From: Pocillopora damicornis
Lineage: Eukaryota
Length of the DNA: 64,000 bases
Assembly: GCF_003704095.1 (NCBI RefSeq)
Contig: NW_020847079.1
Location: 186,001 to 250,000, forward strand
Reading direction: 5' to 3'
In this document: positions 23,501 through 33,600 of the stretch, piece after piece
How the letters are laid out: the number at the start of each line of letters is the position of its first letter
How positions within the stretch are numbered: position 1 is the first letter of the stretch
Translations under genes and position numbers: made by a program
Notes under the pieces: generated by a model
Told to the model about the DNA's origin: nothing
The model's database searches: none
Seen by the model: the letters and a program-made list of their open reading frames with translations, nothing else

Positions 23501-24970
23501 AACTCTGCACCAATGGCTGGCAAATTTTTGACAGCTGTAGAGAATATTCTTTAACAGTTGAAACATTTTTTTCATGATAATTCCTATATCTTTCATCACT
23601 TACTTATGCAGGAGTGTGGCCTTCTCAACCAGATGATGGAAATTTAGTGAATAGTTCTGACCTGTCATGGTCACGTGATATTTTTGCTGTAGGAGATGAG
23701 TTGGGATATATCCGTCTGTTTAGATTCCCATGCAGTCAACCAGGGGTGAGTGATAAGTCATTTATTGAAGTCTTTGTAACCATATAGTTTAACTAAGATG
23801 TTGAAGACTCCTTCAAGATGAGGATAAATTCAAAGTCTAGATCAAAATAAGACTTGGCGTATTTCTATACGTGTATTGTATTTTATCATGATGTTAGTAT
23901 TTCTTTTTCCTTGTAATTATTATAATTTTTATGAATAAAAGTGAAATTGCTGTTATCTAGTTAACAGGTGGAGTAACATTCAATGATTTCATGTGATTAC
24001 CTGCTAAATTATAAGGGTAGTCCAAAAAAAGGCTGTGTTGGGGACAGTAACTGATGCTTGTACAACATTTTATTTCAACTAATTGAAAATCAGTAGTTAT
24101 CAAAAACCAGACTCAACTCTTGACTTAAATGAAGACTTCTATCCAATCACATGTTATTGAAATTTTAGTCCCTGTCACTGACAACCCCTTTTCAATACCA
24201 TCTCACCTGGCCAATAGCACTTGTCAGTATTATTATTGTTCATTTATGATTATATTTTTTTGAAGGCTCACTATCACCAGTGGCGAGGTCATAGCTGTCC
24301 TGTCACACGGATGCTCTTCCTATCATCAGACACCTACCTCATAACAACTGGCAGTCGTGATTTCTGTATTCTTCAGTGGTCAGTAGAGGGAAAGGTTCCT
24401 GTCTTTCAGGAGGAGGAGGAGTATGGCATGGAAAACAACATGGTCCTGACTGGTGGGCGTCCAAAGGAAAGGCGAAGACTTTCAGACAATGAGAGCTACC
24501 ATTCTGATTATAGTGCTGAAGAGCAAGAGAACAATGACTATAATAAACGCTATACTAATGCAGCAAGAGGCAAACAAGTAATAAGGCGGCAACAGCCCAT
24601 TGAAGACAGGTATGCTGATGAGGAACCCCCCAATCAAATGCATCCAACAAGAAAGACACATCTCAGTCACCCAATGGATGATCCTAAACCTGGGGGAAGA
24701 AGTCCTAGACGCAATTTCCCAACCCAGAGCATCAGATCACAGCAAGGATCATATTCAGAGAAAATGACAAAAAATAAAGGTGTCAGTAATGCAAAGTGGA
24801 ACCAACAATCTCCTGATTATCCTGAGGAAGAGTCTGCAGACCTGGAACAATATTCTGATGAAGAAAGCCCAAGACAGCATCAAGGACATGGTGGTAGGGG
24901 TGGGGGTAGAAGCCACCACCCAATGGCAAGAGGACAGGATAGAGATTGGGACAGGAGGCAGCGGAGGTAG
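11549..24970 (+). CDS. Doublecortin-domain-containing EMAP-like protein (2 DCX + HELP + WD40/TAPE + disordered tail), 20 exons: 11549-12445, 13839-14016, 15135-15267, 15704-15853, 16265-16340, 16654-16755, 17272-17370, 17832-17966, 18391-18490, 18619-18659, 19275-19394, 19519-19659, 20159-20290, 21453-21520, 21598-21686, 22293-22390, 22656-22743, 23100-23195, 23612-23745, 24266-24970
   Basis: DCX1 is ITFYRNGDKHFKG...LPYGVRNVFSPGG...LEDGRHYICS, and DCX2 is KPRVITIV...KILLN...SFDAVLKDIS. The HELP motif reads PPDSKLQLSWVYGYHGKDSYNNL. EML-type WD repeats include HYTGHADDIKCMAVHP, TCGKEHVYFW, GDVITGDSNG, GHSEPIMFLDWS, GDELGYIRLFRFPC and GHSCPVT. Exon phases are consistent. Confidence 0.92.
14617..15115 (-). 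mobile_element. 3' end of a CR1/L2-like LINE with a (TGTA)n microsatellite tail
   Basis: The minus strand encodes a decayed RT C-terminus (IMAFKCMTGCA...RNSQMLNIPLYKTATGQRTFYFR...LWNSL). It is followed by an AT-rich 3' UTR and the TACA/CACA repeat at 14617-14670. Confidence 0.7.
15268..15703 (+). other. U12-type (minor spliceosome) GT-AG intron within the HELP motif
   Basis: 5' splice site GTATCTTTT (consensus RTATCCTTT). Branch sequence CCCTTGAC at 15685-15692, about 12 nt from the AG. No polypyrimidine tract. Splicing restores W-V-Y-G-Y. Confidence 0.75.
18770..19215 (+). repeat. Intronic polypyrimidine (C/T-rich) low-complexity tract
   Basis: About 450 nt almost entirely of C and T, with CCTT/CTCC motifs. 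It explains the spurious ORFs at 18887-19247. Confidence 0.85.
20668..21140 (+). mobile_element. L2/CR1-type LINE reverse-transcriptase C-terminal fragment in an intron
   Basis: ISKIRKYL...LVHAFVSSKLDYCNSLLYGLP...LQSVQNTAARII...ITPVLIQLHWLPV...AFSVAAPKLWNELP is the classic post-RT region of L2/CR1 ORF2. It is 5'-truncated and abuts a partial MITE. Confidence 0.88.
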
Positions 24971-25596: not shown

Positions 25597-25855
25597 TACA
25601 AGTGGAACCCTGCTAACTCAAACTTAGTGAACTCAAACCCCCCAGTTACTCAAACAAGATCTAATTTCCTTCTACCTATTTTTTGGGTTATTTACTATCA
25701 GCTTACTCAAACCTGCACTAACTCAACCAATTTTTGTTCCCCCACTAACTCAAACAAGATCCAGTCTCCCTTGATCCCATTTTTCAGTCATTTCCTGTTA
25801 GCTTGAAATTCTGCTAACTCAAACAATTTTGTTTTCCTTGGGAGGCTCTACTGTA
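25597..25855. mobile_element. Tc1/mariner(pogo)-like MITE with internal TAACTCAAAC repeats
   Basis: Ends TACAAGTGGAACCC...GGGAGGCTCTACTGTA (TA-flanked, CAGT-like termini). About six internal (T)AACTCAAAC/TACTCAAAC copies. Confidence 0.55.
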
Positions 25856-26804
25856 TAATAATTATTTGTTGTAGATCCATCCCTGATAGGGATGGAAATA
25901 TTTTGATATACATAGTAAGTAGAAGTTATTAGAATGAAAAAAAAGGTAATAAAATGGAAGGGTAGAGAATTTCAATATGTGAATGTGAGAAGTATCCATT
26001 GTGAATAAACTTTTATTTAATATTTTATCAAAAGTAAAAGATTGCACAATTTACTAGAAAAGATATGGAAGGTTTATGATTGTGTAACATAATAATAACA
26101 AAGCCAAGAAAGTTTCAGCTGTTTATATTGAGCATTCTGCAGGAAAATTCTAATTTAAAATTTTTAAATCAACAGACCACAAAGTTCAATAAACATAATC
26201 TGAAAAATTGACTTGAAGTTTTTATTGTCCAATTCTTACAATTCCTAGTTTTTATTTACTTAACCCTTTAACTCCCAGAAGTGATTAACAAATAACTTCT
26301 CTATAAAATATCCAGACATTATTGAGCAAACAGGTAATGAGACTACTCAAACTTATCCAGTAGAAGTTGCTATCTTGATCTATCACCAAATTCTTGTAAC
26401 CAATTTACCAGAGAATGAGTAGAAGCAAGAGGGGAGAATCAACAATCAGATCTTGGGAGTTAGCGGGTTAACTGAAGAACAGGATATGAAAGACAACAAG
26501 TTCTCCAAAATACTCATTACTGATACATCCTTATAATTTTATGTCCATCCAAGCAAATCTTCATTGTTATTAGTTAAAAAGTCCCAACAATTTGAAAAGG
26601 TGACATTTATCTCATGACTCCAACTCCTCAAGAGTACATTTTATTCCAGCCCCAATCATTTCTTTGAACAAATAAAAATATCCCCTCCGATCAATAAACA
26701 ATTAAAAAATCTAACTGTCCCATAATCTTACCAAGAATGTGATCAGTATAAAACCATTGTATTTGTGTCAAACATTGCAAAAAACGCCATTTTAAATTTG
26801 AATT

Positions 26805-28827
26805 TCATGAGTAATGGAATTGCTGCATTAAGGATAAACTGCCATTTGTCATTGTATATACATTGACAATTTTCTGATTGTTTGACCACAGTCTGAACTG
26901 AATGGCAGAGAAAACTGCAATAGTTGACAAGAAGAATGCCAAAACAGCTTGCCAGGGACGTGCACCAGCACGCTGTTCCTGAAGAAACTGCATAATTTTA
27001 TCCCAGGAATCTTCTTGCTCTGACTTCCTCTGACGACTGACTTGGCGAACCAAGCGATTCCACAAGTAATCAACATCAACATTACCAAGAGAGATGATTG
27101 GCAGCATTAAAAAGAAGAGTAACAGAAATGAATGCACATATTGAAAAAAGGAAAGTGGATCAGTCTTCACAATCCACACATGCAACTCCAGAAAAAGACA
27201 GACTGTGCACAAAATTAGGTTCAGTGCAATCCAACCTGATGAAAATTCACGGAATATATGGTAGGCATCAAATGCTTCAGCCAAACGAGCTCTGCACAAA
27301 TCAATATTGTCAATATTTTCTTGAAGAAACTTTGTTACCAGTTTGATTTCCGACTCATAGCTGCAACGCAGAAGGTACACTATGTAGCAAAATCCACCAA
27401 AATTAATGTAACCTTCTACAATGACAAAAAAGTGAAGAGGAACTAAGGTTGTTAGACTAGAAAGTGTTTCATTAGCAACCATGGGCGAGACCAGCTCTGG
27501 GTCAAAATATGGTGCTGTTATCTTCAGACACTGGGTGCCCATCACAACAACACTCCCAAGAAAGAGGGCATAACCAGCAAACTGCTTATCCTTCATGTTG
27601 ACAAATCTCATCCGGTGGACAAGGAACTCTACAGCCAATGCATTTGACCAGCTCCCCATGAATACACTTGGCCATGTGGCGTGGACAACAGAAATGAAAC
27701 ATATGAATGGACCAATGTAGAGCAACAGCTTCATTCCAATCCAAGCAAGCACATGAACAATATCACAGCCAGAATTTGCATAGCTTGCAATCAACAGCAC
27801 AATGTTAGCCAATGTGACACCAGTTATAAGCAGGAGCCACATCAGTGAAAGAAATCCACTACCACAGTGGTTCAGAAATGATGAGCCTATTTCCTTGTCA
27901 GTGACAACAGTTGGCACACCCTTGTAATCCCAAGTCAGGCTGTTACACACCTTACACTGATTATCTGTGTAGTAGAAGGCAGTGTGTGTCTTTGACTTTG
28001 CACATCTGTTGCATAGTTTGGAACGAACCAGAAAACCTGAAGGGAGAAAGATAAATCAGATATAACACAACGGTATCAAAATGAACATGGAACCCATGAC
28101 ATGACTGACAAGGCATTCTGCTGTATTCAGAGCCCACAAGAATGATTAATAATTCATATGTTAACCTTAAGTGTATAACTATGTTGGTAATAATCCCTTT
28201 AACTCCCAAAAATGATTTACAAGCAACTTCTCCCTCACTAATCTATATTATCCTGAAAACAAAGTGATTAGAATAGAAATATTTGACGTTGGAAGGACAC
28301 TATTTTTTGGATAATATTACATTCTCTCAACTAATCTACAGGATATTATTATTGAAGGTAATAGGAGAATTACTAGTCAGATGACAATTAACAAGTAAAG
28401 GAAACCAAATAACAGATATTTTTAAGAAACAGGAAACATGAATGTACAGCTCAAAAAATTTAATTTCGTATGTTTAAATGGAATGACACTTATCAGGAAA
28501 CATCTTTGGTATTTTATGCCAAAAATCTGAGATCAGAGAAACTTGGCAAAAATAAAGTTTGAAGAATGCAATAGAATACCAATAGCATTAATTATAAAAA
28601 CAAGAAATATTTCATAAATATTTCAAGAAGAAGGAAACTTAAACCTTACTATGGAAGGCTTTAAAGGTAAAAAGGGAAGTTATGCCTTTACCAGAATGAT
28701 AAAGCCCCAATGTCTTCAAGTAGAACCACAATAATACTGGCCATCTTTCACCCACTTCAGTTGCTCTCAAAATGGGAACACTCACAGACTCACTACTGCC
28801 ACGGTGAATATCCAAAGCGCTGACCAT
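26805..28827 (-). CDS. Seven-TM membrane protein, gustatory-receptor-like / 7TM ion channel (7TMIC) candidate; 2 coding exons (28827-28692, 28036-26805), ~455 aa
   Basis: A phase-1 GT-AG intron joins ...LKTLGLYHS-G-FLVRSKLCNRCAK...CKVCNSLTWD in frame with the 381-aa ORF. There are seven hydrophobic segments, a long helical TM4-TM5 loop, and a C-terminal STIAVFSAIQF resembling the GR-family TYhhhhhQF motif. The gene call is strong; the family call is inference. Confidence 0.7.
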
Positions 28828-29522
28828 CTAAACGATCGAAAATAAGTGGGAAAAAGATCAGCAAATAAAATTAAACGCATTGAAAAAAAATTAAGACACT
28901 GAAAAAGAGATTAGGGAATTGCAACTTTATCAATAAGCCATAGGGTAAAAACAATTGTCAACCAGATTGAATCGGTTCTCTCAATTTTGCTCTGACTGGA
29001 ACAGAAACAACTAACTTGCTTTTATTAGAACCTTTTCCTTTTTCCGGGCAAATTTATCATCCAATCATTTATCTATTTTCAGAACATTGTCTCGCAGATT
29101 CCTGTACATAAATAGATTTAGAAGGGTGATCACGACCATTTCCTGTCACAAATTATTTTTTTTAATGTTGATTGTCCACCCAGGTAGATGGACTTGGAAA
29201 TTTTATCACTAAATATGGGCACAAATTGACCCGTTTAATACTTCGCAAACGCAAATTGCTGCTTTGAAGAGACAAAAAACAGGATTCGACTTCATGCCGT
29301 AGAAACCTCATGTTGCTTTGACATAAAGTTCTGGAAGTTCGAAACCGCCCCCTCACCTCCCGTACGACACATAAGCACGCAAAAACTCGAAGATCGCTAA
29401 GGCCTACAAATTCAACCGTATTGAAACGCGACGAAAGTAGATCTTATGCCTCGCTTTTTAAATTTGCAAAACAGTTTGAGCGAAAATGATTCAGTTTTTT
29501 GTACACACCGTTACGCAACCGT

Positions 29523-30478
29523 AACCGAGGTCAGAGTTCCACAATTATATATTTGCTTTTTTCCACCGTGACCTTTGAAGAAACATGAAGTACGTACGAT
29601 CGCTAGGACCAGCGAGGCTGAAGGTGAACGAGCATTCAACTCTAAAAGAGTCTTAACCAATAAAACGATCCTCGATCATTGCATCCACCACCAGCAATAA
29701 GCTTAGCTGTCCTCACGTCGTTAAGGTGCACGTGAAATGTTTCGTTTAGACCTGAAAATTTTAAAAATAACTACTAACCTTTTTATCAGAATTCACTGTT
29801 CCAGTCCATTCCGGCGAGGAAGACGTGGAGAAGATCGATTTATTTTGCATATTGCGACGAGAAGGTTTATTTACTACTATGCCAAGAAGCAGATCACTAA
29901 GAAAGGCAGGAGAAATGGTGTACAGTTCCCTTTGAACTTATCTCCTTACATAACGTAATAACAATCGAGAGGCTTGTCAACGGTCGTGTTATTTTGCCCA
30001 TGAGAAAACAGCAATCGATCAGAATAAGCAATGACGTAATTTTACTGATCACGCACCGAGTAGGGACCTCCAATTTCTTGAAAACTAAAAAGATGAGAAT
30101 AAAGAGAACTTCGTTTTTTTCTGTTTCCAGTGGAAAAAATGTCAAATGGAGAAAAATTGACTGGTGAAGCTTTATAGCTTGCAAAAGAAACTTCTAAGTT
30201 TTGATGCGTGTCAAGAAATTGATAAATTCTAGAATCGCACAGATCCATCAAAGATCGAGGCACGTTCGCTGCTTTCCACTTGAAATAAAAAGGTCTGTCT
30301 GAGTTTCTTTTCCTAAATCGTCCCATGAAATAAATTATTCATAAGTGGGAGAAAAAGAGTCCAATTTTCCCTAGATGACTTACCAGATCTTCACTGAATA
30401 TTATATGTCAGAGAAATCCACTCTGGAAGCAAACCGAGGTCAGAGTTCAACAATTATATATTTGCTTTTTTCCACCGT
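29523..30478 (+). promoter_or_regulatory. Duplicated 47-bp block (29523-29569 and 30432-30478) containing a DR1-like nuclear receptor element
   Basis: AACCGAGGTCAGAGTTC(C/A)ACAATTATATATTTGCTTTTTTCCACCGT, 46 of 47 bases identical. It contains AGGTCA-G-AGTTC(A/C). The regulatory role is inference. Confidence 0.45.
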
Positions 30479-30691
30479 CACACGAGCGTGATCCTGGCTT
30501 ACGTACCTGCACGCATCCGCGCGTAAACTCGCATGATACCCGCACGAGCCGCGCGCCGTTCGCGCATATTAACGCCATACCCACAAATCCTAGCGGAGTT
30601 CAGTTTCAGTTTACACGGCAGTTCTGTATAACAGATTCGAACGATTTTTAGAAATTCTGTTCCGATCTGTCGCTACAACAAACGTGTTATC

Positions 30692-33600
30692 ATGATCAAA
30701 GTCATAGCGTCGGTTGTCTGCGCCTTTGCAGCGATGCTGATGATCATTTTGAGCTTAGCCACGACCTACTGGCTGCAGTGGGTGATAGTTTCTCACAACA
30801 GAAACATCACTCATTACCGAGGTTTATTCAGACATTGTTGGGAATCAAGGGATAACGTTACAGACGAACTCATAAGCGCGGAATCTGACTGTTCCAATGA
30901 TAAGCACACGCTTCAAGATGTACTGAAATCAGGTGAGCAGTTGATTTGCCAACGTTTGAAAATGGTTACTAGTGTGAAGTAGGCGTCATACAGGTTTTTC
31001 TAGTCACTTGTGTTTTACTCCACAACCGAAAGGAGCAGCGATCGACGAAACTATCTGTCAGTGACGATTTCTTTCATTTGATTTCTGTGAGATAGCCAGA
31101 AAAAAGTTACTAATAATTGTAACTAGTGAACCACCGCGCAGTAATTTCTAAAATCATACGTATGTAAAATATTATGCGTGAAGTGAAGCGAACATAAATG
31201 AAAGTATGCATTGTAATCAAGCAGAACGCTACGTAAAGATTCTTTTCAAATTTCCATCGGCACACCCTGTGACTTCGTTCTTGGGAAAGCGAAGCTCTGA
31301 GAGAGCACGCGTTAATACTAAACAATGATCAAAGTCATAACAAGCTTTGTGAGCTGTTTAGCTGCAATTCTGTTGGGAATTTTGGCCCTTGCCACCGACT
31401 TTTGGCTAGTGTGGTGGAAAGAAGCGAAGGAAATCGGAGGTGTACAATACCACCATGAAGGCCTGTTTCAAACTTGTTCTGAATCCTCGATCAACAACAC
31501 TGTTGTTGCCGCAGATAGCTGCACTAAATTACACGATTTGGGAAGACCAGGTACATCTTTTTCTGATTTGGTATTTATAGTATGTCGAAGAAAAAATATT
31601 TGCGTGTCTTGTTTACATTTGTTTTGTTCATTACCTGACTGACTGTTAGGACATAAAATTTGCTTATAGACTCTCAACTTGACAAAGATCTCTGTAACAT
31701 CAAATTGACTTTACAGACTAACTTTTGTCAATGACAAATTTCTATTAACGTGGAGTTTAGAGATTGATTACGGCTCGAAACTTTAACTCATACCAATTAC
31801 AACCAGTTGTTTTGAATAATTATTCTAATTATGAACAGTTCTTATACATATTCTAAAGGTTTTTGGTTCTTTGTAACAATCTTTGTTGTTCAAAAAAACT
31901 TTTATGTTTCGAATTTTAGTTTAATGCCACGAGCTACCTTTAAATTATTGCCTAAAGCTTCTATATAACACATTAAACATACTCCTTTCTTAGAATACAA
32001 TCATGTTCTGGAATTTTCCGCAAATAGCGGTGATTCTTGTCAATAAATAATCTAAAGGTACAAGAGATATGATTTGCAACAGGAGGTTTTTAATTTTTCT
32101 GTTTCCTGGGACTTTCAAGTCAGTGTTGCTAAATTGATCAAGTTTTAATTTGCCACTAGCACTGGGTGAAGCATTTGAGTAAAGGCAGCACAGCTTGTAA
32201 CTGCTAAGTTAAATATTTATAGGCTTCTAGTATGATTTTAAGAAATCTTGAAAAAACAGCATAATCCGTTTTAAGTCCAGTTTTATGTGGTTTAAGTGTA
32301 ACATGCCTTTTCTTCGGTAACTTGTCCAGAAATTTTATTTGATTGAACAATTGTCCAATGCACTTTATTGTTCTTCTACAGAAGCAAATGATCTTGTTTT
32401 AATTGAATGTGTCAGTGTGTAATTTTCAGAAACTTCAGGGTTGATTTTTTGCCTAAAATATTTTATGGAGGAAGCACATATGCATTTATGTTAAAAATAA
32501 ACAGAGATATGATTGTTACAGAATCCTGCAATTGCCTACAACTATAAAGAAAGTAGTATACATCAAGTGATGCCATAACAAATAATATTCTGGCCTGAAC
32601 ATAAACAGTGATAGTGCATAGTATTACATATAATGCATTTCGATTTAACAGGAGCCTCAGTTTGCACTAAGACATGCTCTGACATTTGTGTAAAAACCTT
32701 TGTTATATTTTCCAAGAAGCAAACAAATTACAGACAGTGAAGTTCAAGGAAAACTGACCAACAACAAATGCTCATGCAAATAATGTGCAAGGAAATATAT
32801 TAAATATATTTTCCTTTTATTTGGAGGCTAGCTGATATCTTTATTATTCTAGAAACAGTCTTGTGCCTCTTGAGACCGAATATTTAAAAATGTTTTCCTG
32901 TCAAAAACATTCACTGTCTTATAATTAATCAGGAAAGGAGATTTTCCCTTCTTCTGAAACAACAGCAAACATTTTGTAATCTTGAAGTACATTTTGAACA
33001 GAGATCTCCCTGGTTTTGGATATGTTGTTTGAAAATAATAGTGAAAAAAAAGACTGGACATATCCCAGTTTTAGCTCGGACATATTCAGTCACATGCCAC
33101 TTGATAGCAACCCAACACAAATGTAGTTGATATTTTTTTGATTTACGAAATTGTGTTATGATTTACAAAATCTGTTTTATCATTTTATGATTCTGTGTAA
33201 ATAAATTTGTCTATGGGGGTCCATTAGGTTGACTGTTGACTCTGAAATTTAAAAAAAATCAAGCAGGTAGGCAGAGCAGAATTCAACCTTAGGACCTTTA
33301 TCTACTCCACACCACCATCATGTCCTGCCGTCATAAGCTTTAACCCTTTAACTCTCAAGATCCAAGTAGTTATTCTTCCAACTGACTGCTAGTTGTTTCC
33401 TTGTAAATTATACAGGAGAATTCTATGTTACATTAAGATAACAACCTCTTGCTGACAAGCTTTGCTATTCTCACAACCTGTTTTCAAGATCGTGTATTGG
33501 AATGGCAATGAGAAGTTAAAAGTTAATCAATTCTAAGAATTAAAGGGTTGACAAACATGGTTATCCATAGGAAGGGACGGAAATATTTACTGGCTCTCTA

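Follow-up and report, generated by a model that had tools for sequence, protein, structure and literature searches.

The window analysed here, 64,000 nt of Pocillopora damicornis DNA (contig NW_020847079.1, positions 186,001 to 250,000), carries on its minus strand a spliced gene for a membrane protein predicted to have the fold of insect OR/GR channels (Table 1). The gene has three exons. A sequence-only reading of the window had proposed two, with an exon at 28827-28692 (136 nt) joined to a coding part at 28036-26805 (1,232 nt) to give 455 stop-free codons. The open reading frame and both splice sites of that model are real, and every motif that it quoted is found in the translation, but RNA contigs reveal a third, upstream exon that it had missed. 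The 655-nt GT..AG phase-1 intron is precisely skipped by RNA contigs in four of four runs, which come from three studies, and the 951-nt intron at 28828-29778 is also spliced out, with position 29779 joined to 28827 in four of four RNA runs. These contigs are evidence of the spliced form; expression level and tissue are outside their scope. The transcript extends beyond the coding part of exon 3, to around position 26433. The earliest in-frame ATG, at 29850, gives a protein of 479 aa, and a close relative of 478 aa (P0063) shares that N-terminal start. Exon 1 (29779-30009, minus strand) also contains three out-of-frame ATGs with reading frames of 34, 1, and 7 aa, which could damp translation. 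In one alignment of the family (A1), 9 of 28 rows diverge from the other members exactly at the intron 2 junction, which suggests that this intron is shared. The gene is single-copy in the Pocillopora damicornis genome: one match was found in the 234-Mb assembly with the gene's own protein as the query, and one with a starfish relative as the query (E 1.7e-22).

Table 1. Features of the coral gene, in window coordinates.
Feature	Position	Strand	Basis
Exon 1: 5' UTR and 24 codons, first in-frame ATG 29850-29848	29779..~30009	-	Contigs X5 and X9 reach 30008-30009
Intron 1: 951 nt, GT..AG, phase 0	28828..29778	-	RNA contigs
Exon 2: N-terminal tail and TM0	28692..28827	-	ORF, RNA contigs
TM0 / S0 re-entrant helix (WP..L..LG), predicted	28702..28743	-	Structural alignments, conserved residues
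Intron 2: 655 nt, GT..AG, phase 1; separates TM0 from first CxxC	28037..28691	-	RNA contigs
Exon 3, coding part: Cys loop, TM1-TM7, and C-tail, without 3' introns	26805..28036	-	ORF, RNA
First CxxC (CNRC), residues 54-57 from ATG at 28827	28002..28013	-	Sequence, alignment
Second CxxC (CKVC), residues 73-76	27945..27956	-	Sequence, alignment
Seven-helix 7TMIC core, TM1 to TM7b, predicted	26889..27860	-	AlphaFold2 model, VIA-align Z
Cytosolic TM4-TM5 anchor hairpin, predicted; includes fifth conserved Cys	27231..27383	-	Model helices 249-291 and 296-341
TM7b, predicted pore helix, QF gate pair (26900-26895) at its end	26895..26957	-	Conservation

The fold was predicted with AlphaFold2 on a full-length protein 98% identical to that of the coral gene (P0003), using an alignment of 58 rows. 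The model (pLDDT 75.8, pTM 0.77) has TM0 helices, TM1 to TM6 with long TM4 and TM5, and a TM7 split into helices 390-405 (TM7a) and 412-438 (TM7b). Among the Foldseek matches listed to rank 22, all are OR, GR, or Orco structures at probability 1.0, with modest E-values (1e-3 to 3e-2) and TM-scores of 0.40-0.57. VIA-align placed 20 OR/GR entries at Z 14.2-19.8 with 295-330 residues aligned, and the next entry reached only Z 8.2. When 48,161 representative chains were searched without bias, eight of the eight with Z of at least 8 were OR/GR. The listed GPCRs fall far below OR/GR (Z 5.8-6.3, rmsd 12-13), and these values, together with the charge bias described below, do not fit a GPCR. Neighbours in the ESM Atlas (0.92-0.93) carry 7tm_7, Trehalose_recp, or DUF267 on 10-32% of their members.

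In the N-terminus and every second loop, lysines and arginines number 12, 4, 6, and 8, compared to 0, 1, 1, and 1 on the opposite side, and the sequons fall on the predicted outer side. Based on the fold match and the charge bias, the N-terminus and the TM0-TM1 loop would be cytosolic. The protein is thus predicted to have the fold of a seven-transmembrane ion channel (7TMIC), with its N-terminus inside and its C-terminus outside the cell. TM0 is modelled as helices 28-34 and 37-45, and the alignments to OR/GR structures start at model residues 25-36. Its residues W35, P36, L43, L46, and G47 are common to 68-76% of non-cnidarian rows, and TM0 is kept in the echinoderm and hemichordate relatives. 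As listed for 7TMICs by Himmel et al. (2023), the predicted loops on the outer side are the shorter ones, although IL1 is short (~26-34 aa), about equal in length to EL2 (~33 aa); without a long TM2-TM3 insert, the predicted architecture is Class-A-like, unlike that of the PHTF-like Class-B proteins. The fold, the N-in topology, the re-entrant-helix-like N-terminal segment, and the long charged TM4-TM5 hairpin had all been proposed by the sequence-only reading, and each is supported here, the structural match being colinear. The results that it had named as counting against it, namely a GPCR or other fold, an N-out topology, or loss of the cysteines among orthologues, did not occur.

Conservation among cnidarians is highest in TM5, IL3, TM7a, and TM7b, and conservation of the anchor and pore has been described as a pattern of 7TMICs in the available text of one structural survey (10.1101/2023.08.30.555482). 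TM7b, in which 11 of 23 columns are invariant in cnidarians, is among the most conserved regions. Its Q and F are both kept in 19 of 19 cnidarian rows, and the Q is kept in just 15 of 52 non-cnidarian rows. The end of this helix, STIAVFSAIQF, had been set beside a TYhhhhhQF-type motif of TM7b. Of the TM7 motif of GR/GRL proteins, (T/S)Yhhhhh(Q/K/E)(F/L/M), the QF half is present and the TY half is missing, with I-A in its place, such that two of four positions fit. The motif is termed diagnostic, not definitive, for GR/GRL in the portion available of PMC7746228. In BmGr9, the QF pair of TM7b has a role in the gate, according to the accessible text of PMC11100771.

Sequence similarity to known 7TMICs was sought with profiles. 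A Pfam search of the coral protein gave zero matches, none of 58 and none of 46 family proteins match Pfam 7tm_7, Trehalose_recp, or DUF267, and PDB sequence searches with two family profiles retrieved no 7TMIC. The Pocillopora damicornis genome contains two 7tm_7 matches that are classical GRL exons (L019 and L020; G000:C3382 and C280), neither of which is recognised by the family profile (E 0.89 and 2). The coral gene has TM1 through the stop codon in one exon, with no 3' introns. Judged by its introns and profile, the gene is not a classical GRL.

Compared to the insect OR/GR structures MhOR5 (7LIC/7LID), Orco (6C70), BmGr9 (8VC1/8UVT), Gr43a (8JM9), and Gr64a (8JME), the predicted TM0-TM7b fold is alike, including the long TM4/TM5 anchor, the split TM7, and the terminal QF. 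However, identity in structural alignments is 6-9%, and the coral protein differs in carrying two CxxC pairs on a TM0-TM1 loop of ~64 aa, in the absence of TY from TM7b, in an IL2 that is a short turn, and in the absence of a 7tm_7 or Trehalose_recp match. The classical cnidarian GRLs, namely NvecGrl1, NvecGrl2, two more Nematostella genes, L019, and L020, are likewise cnidarian N-in 7TMICs. NvecGRL1, the only Nematostella protein in the direct comparison, is a different protein that begins like LOC5512107, whereas the Nematostella orthologue of the coral gene is LOC5522307. L019 and L020 lack an N-terminal CxxC and their open frames end near TM6, in contrast to the single TM1-TM7 exon of the coral gene. 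Earlier surveys, as given in the available part of PMC5850775, recorded four Nematostella GRLs and no GR candidate in Hydra, whereas the family of the coral gene has a Hydra member. GrlHz and PHTF (Benton and Himmel 2023; Himmel et al. 2023) are likewise conserved, low-copy 7TMIC lineages discovered via structure rather than sequence; in PHTF a long insert occupies IL1, between TM2 and TM3, while the coral protein has a short IL1 and an insert ahead of TM1. The loci LOC5522307 (Nematostella) and LOC101238777 (Hydra) are missing from all 53 supplementary files of PMC9998090, four of which were available in shortened form, and six family locus ids are missing from its supplementary files 1-48; the datasets in these files may be redundancy-reduced.

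In a word-based search, 54 proteins were recovered that share 42-98% identity with the coral protein; those with names come from Actinia, Nematostella, and Hydra, and Orbicella is the nearest named relative (80% identity). Searching 1.84 billion representatives with a profile yielded 98 matches. Twenty distant matches were looked up, and 15 are from echinoderms, covering all five classes, and five from hemichordates; the remaining distant matches carry no taxon and could include further phyla. A word-based search with the broad alignment added only four proteins, the named ones adding no phylum, and an Atlas search with the N-terminal part of the Hydra protein gave scores below 0.8. In a tree of the TM core (47 rows with 10 redundant four-Cys rows omitted, unrooted, SH-aLRT only), cnidarians are separated from all other rows by a branch whose support is 100. 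On the basis of these comparisons, the family is a separate lineage of Cnidaria and Ambulacraria that includes corals, anemones, Hydra, starfish, urchins, and acorn worms, and, assuming vertical descent, it dates back to the cnidarian-bilaterian split or earlier. The description of the protein as a divergent cnidarian 7TMIC therefore holds for the fold but not for the family, as it is a member of this broader lineage rather than a lone cnidarian GRL. In UniRef, the Nematostella entry and one Apostichopus entry are already labelled 'Gustatory receptor'.

Some locus tags are adjacent in Apostichopus and in Lytechinus, and Ptychodera has several paralogues, which suggests tandem expansion in these animals; the expanded sets of Ambulacraria resemble a repertoire of chemoreceptors. 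The single copy and high conservation in cnidarians would fit a role in some conserved signal, physiological or developmental, more than that of a tuned odorant receptor. One Apostichopus protein of 722 aa (P0144, XP_071813737.1) contains the series TM0, Cys loop, and TM1-TM3 twice, from either an internal duplication or tandem genes that annotation has merged.

The TM0-TM1 loop contains the motif C-x2-C-x15-C-x2-C. The gap had been given as 18 residues, which is incorrect for this gene (15 residues here, 15-18 in cnidarians), and the label 'zinc knuckle' is the wrong term for a split two-CxxC site, as this name belongs to CX2CX4HX4C. Two separate CxxC arise in 1,229 of 100,000 shuffles of the 64-aa loop; the conservation of the cysteines carries more weight. 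The four cysteines are kept in 32 of 32, 33 of 33, 35 of 36, and 41 of 43 of those cnidarian rows, among 58, that have a residue at the position. Of the 58 cnidarian rows, 32 show the full motif, among them every one of the 17 that extend to TM0. The cnidarian rows without the full motif appear to be N-terminally cut gene calls, as was seen for five of them. Downstream of the second pair, a conserved S..W...G and IG....NH stretch runs into TM1.

To extend this comparison, 58 distant rows with lengths of 330 aa or more were aligned and the 38 with a visible loop were classed by hand, excluding 20 with cut or aberrant N-termini, three of which show the second pair alone. These 38 non-cnidarian rows comprise 24 with CxxC and CxxC, five with CxxH and CxxC, eight with neither pair, and one with the second pair only; P0185 retains a single pair. 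The first pair, which is preceded by basic residues, begins 8-13 residues past TM0 in 29 of 29 distant relatives with both pairs, and the second pair lies 29-30 residues ahead of TM1 in 19 of these 29. The distances to TM0 and TM1 are held, while the spacer between the pairs ranges from 15 to 170 aa and is usually acidic. Loss is joint in eight of nine rows with any loss of a Cys pair (Fisher test, p 1.8e-7, a value that is no true probability because the rows are related). On the tree, the losses map to three to five separate points. The CxxH rows group as a single clade (SH-aLRT 100) that includes two rows labelled Ptychodera, and the Cys-to-His change is one evolutionary event. A swap of Cys to His retains a zinc ligand and breaks a disulfide. 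The fixed pairs, free spacer, Cys-to-His exchange, and mostly joint loss are as expected of a single four-ligand zinc site, and the two CxxC pairs likely bind one zinc ion in the cytosol. The eight relatives without the site indicate that it is dispensable for the fold. The loop has low confidence in the P0003 model (pLDDT 51-65), in which no metal geometry was seen, and when folded alone it gave a low-confidence structure (pLDDT 53, pTM 0.24) with no Foldseek match.

An origin of the Cys loop from the cysteine-rich domain of DHHC palmitoyltransferases (PF01529) was considered and rejected as no better than shuffles. Hydra members give a weak PF01529 match (best E 1.2e-4, 22.5 bits, against a cut-off of 28.7), profile comparison with 12 DHHC segments of the Pocillopora damicornis genome gave a probability of 1-2%, and CxxC-keeping shuffles score as high as the real loop in 18 of 60 trials. 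The DHHC tetrapeptide, the catalytic motif of that domain, is absent from the sequences inspected. Among the coral's own DHHC matches, two overlapping loci (L005 and L007, G000:C3244) have matches on opposite strands, ~1 kb apart.

We estimate a probability of roughly 0.68 for the following reading: this spliced, single-copy coral gene encodes a protein with the predicted OR/GR fold, its family is a lineage of its own that spans cnidarians, echinoderms, and hemichordates, and the two CxxC pairs of the protein likely hold one zinc ion. In such a protein, four subunits would assemble through the TM4-TM5/TM7a anchor into a homotetramer, with TM7b lining a cation pore and the terminal QF pair acting as the gate, as in BmGr9 in the accessible part of PMC11100771. 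The zinc clasp would be mainly structural, fastening TM0 at its end to the segment that leads into TM1, with the variable and probably disordered spacer projecting as a loop on the cytosolic side.

Most zinc sites with four Cys ligands serve protein structure, and for this one such a role is no less likely than metal or redox sensing. If the site were instead a switch, oxidation, for example passed on by peroxiredoxin, or a change in free zinc would free the clasp, shift TM0/TM1, and gate the channel, which would make it a sensor of H2O2, light stress, or zinc; we consider this unlikely. The predicted cytosolic position of the site next to TM0 is compatible with such a role, as is the presence of a fifth cytosolic Cys at the tip of the anchor (27296-27294, DLCR). 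All 58 cnidarian rows have this Cys, as do 45 of 57 non-cnidarian rows; among the relatives, it is kept by 22 of the 24 that have four Cys but by only 4 of the 8 that lack the site. There is also a precedent in the superfamily: the available text of 10.64898/2026.01.22.701078 proposes that oxidation is passed on by peroxiredoxin to LITE-1 and GUR-3, two nematode 7TMICs, where it acts on cysteines that face the cytosol and so gates the channels. However, the cysteines of LITE-1 and GUR-3 are single residues rather than a four-ligand site and could not be aligned to the coral family. It is very improbable that the coral cysteines are lipidation sites, disulfides, or iron ligands rather than zinc ligands. 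Two CxxC pairs can also bind Fe in rubredoxin-like sites, where Gly is usual after CxxC, and cysteines in the cytosol near the membrane with basic residues ahead of them could be lipidated. Nevertheless, Gly after CxxC is rare in this family, and the strict CxxC spacing, the joint loss, and the CxxH clade fit tetrahedral zinc better.

A different interpretation is that the protein has the 7TMIC fold but acts as a scaffold, a transporter, or in lipid handling, or that the fold has merely converged. The low identity to OR/GR, the lack of a profile link, and the half-matched TM7 motif favour this interpretation, and Benton and Himmel allow for other activities of PHTF and GrlHz in the portion available of their 2023 study (PMC9998090). 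The invariant QF of cnidarians and the peak of conservation at TM5, IL3, TM7a, and TM7b, which is the 7TMIC anchor and pore pattern in the text available from 10.1101/2023.08.30.555482, argue against it, and we regard it as decidedly unlikely. A broader version of the channel interpretation is that the family represents a third animal 7TMIC lineage of ancient origin, alongside GR/GRL and GrlHz and already present in the common ancestor of cnidarians and bilaterians, with a single conserved cnidarian gene, an echinoderm and hemichordate chemoreceptor expansion, and a zinc clasp that serves as the gating switch. This combination is doubtful, but if true it would be the first insect-receptor-like channel under direct zinc or oxidant control, for example as a reactive-oxygen sensor in corals.

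The lineage seems to have been overlooked in earlier surveys. The largest structural survey skipped animals, which it regarded as screened well enough, and noted in its accessible text no obvious new 7TMICs specific to animals (10.1101/2023.08.30.555482), and our literature search found no paper that names these genes and no mention of six family accessions. Few 7TMICs outside insects have a known function. Nematostella and Hydra each have one well-conserved gene, and since knock-out and single-cell work is feasible in both, an ancestral channel role is directly testable. Echinoderms and hemichordates gain a candidate repertoire of ionotropic chemoreceptors. A metal site in the cytosol would offer a means of regulation for which we found no earlier description in this class of channels.

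The neighbourhood of the gene contains several other features. Two similar first exons of the claudin/PMP22 family (30632-30982 and 31322-31642, plus strand; Pfam E 7.7e-4 and 2.1e-5) start ~600 nt from the gene's 5' end in a head-to-head arrangement, in which a shared promoter is possible. On the other side, the last exon of an EML WD40 gene (echinoderm microtubule-associated protein-like; 24218-24970, plus strand; Pfam E 3.8e-10), with a charged low-complexity tail, lies tail to tail with the coral gene. A 228-nt element at 26252-26479 has 26-nt inverted ends that include TTAA, is very deep in RNA contigs, and looks like a high-copy MITE. The 3' end of the gene's transcript enters this element, and a partial copy lies inside intron 2 at 28188-28232. 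Degenerate repeats of ~100 nt with the core TAACTCAAAC occupy 25600-25840.
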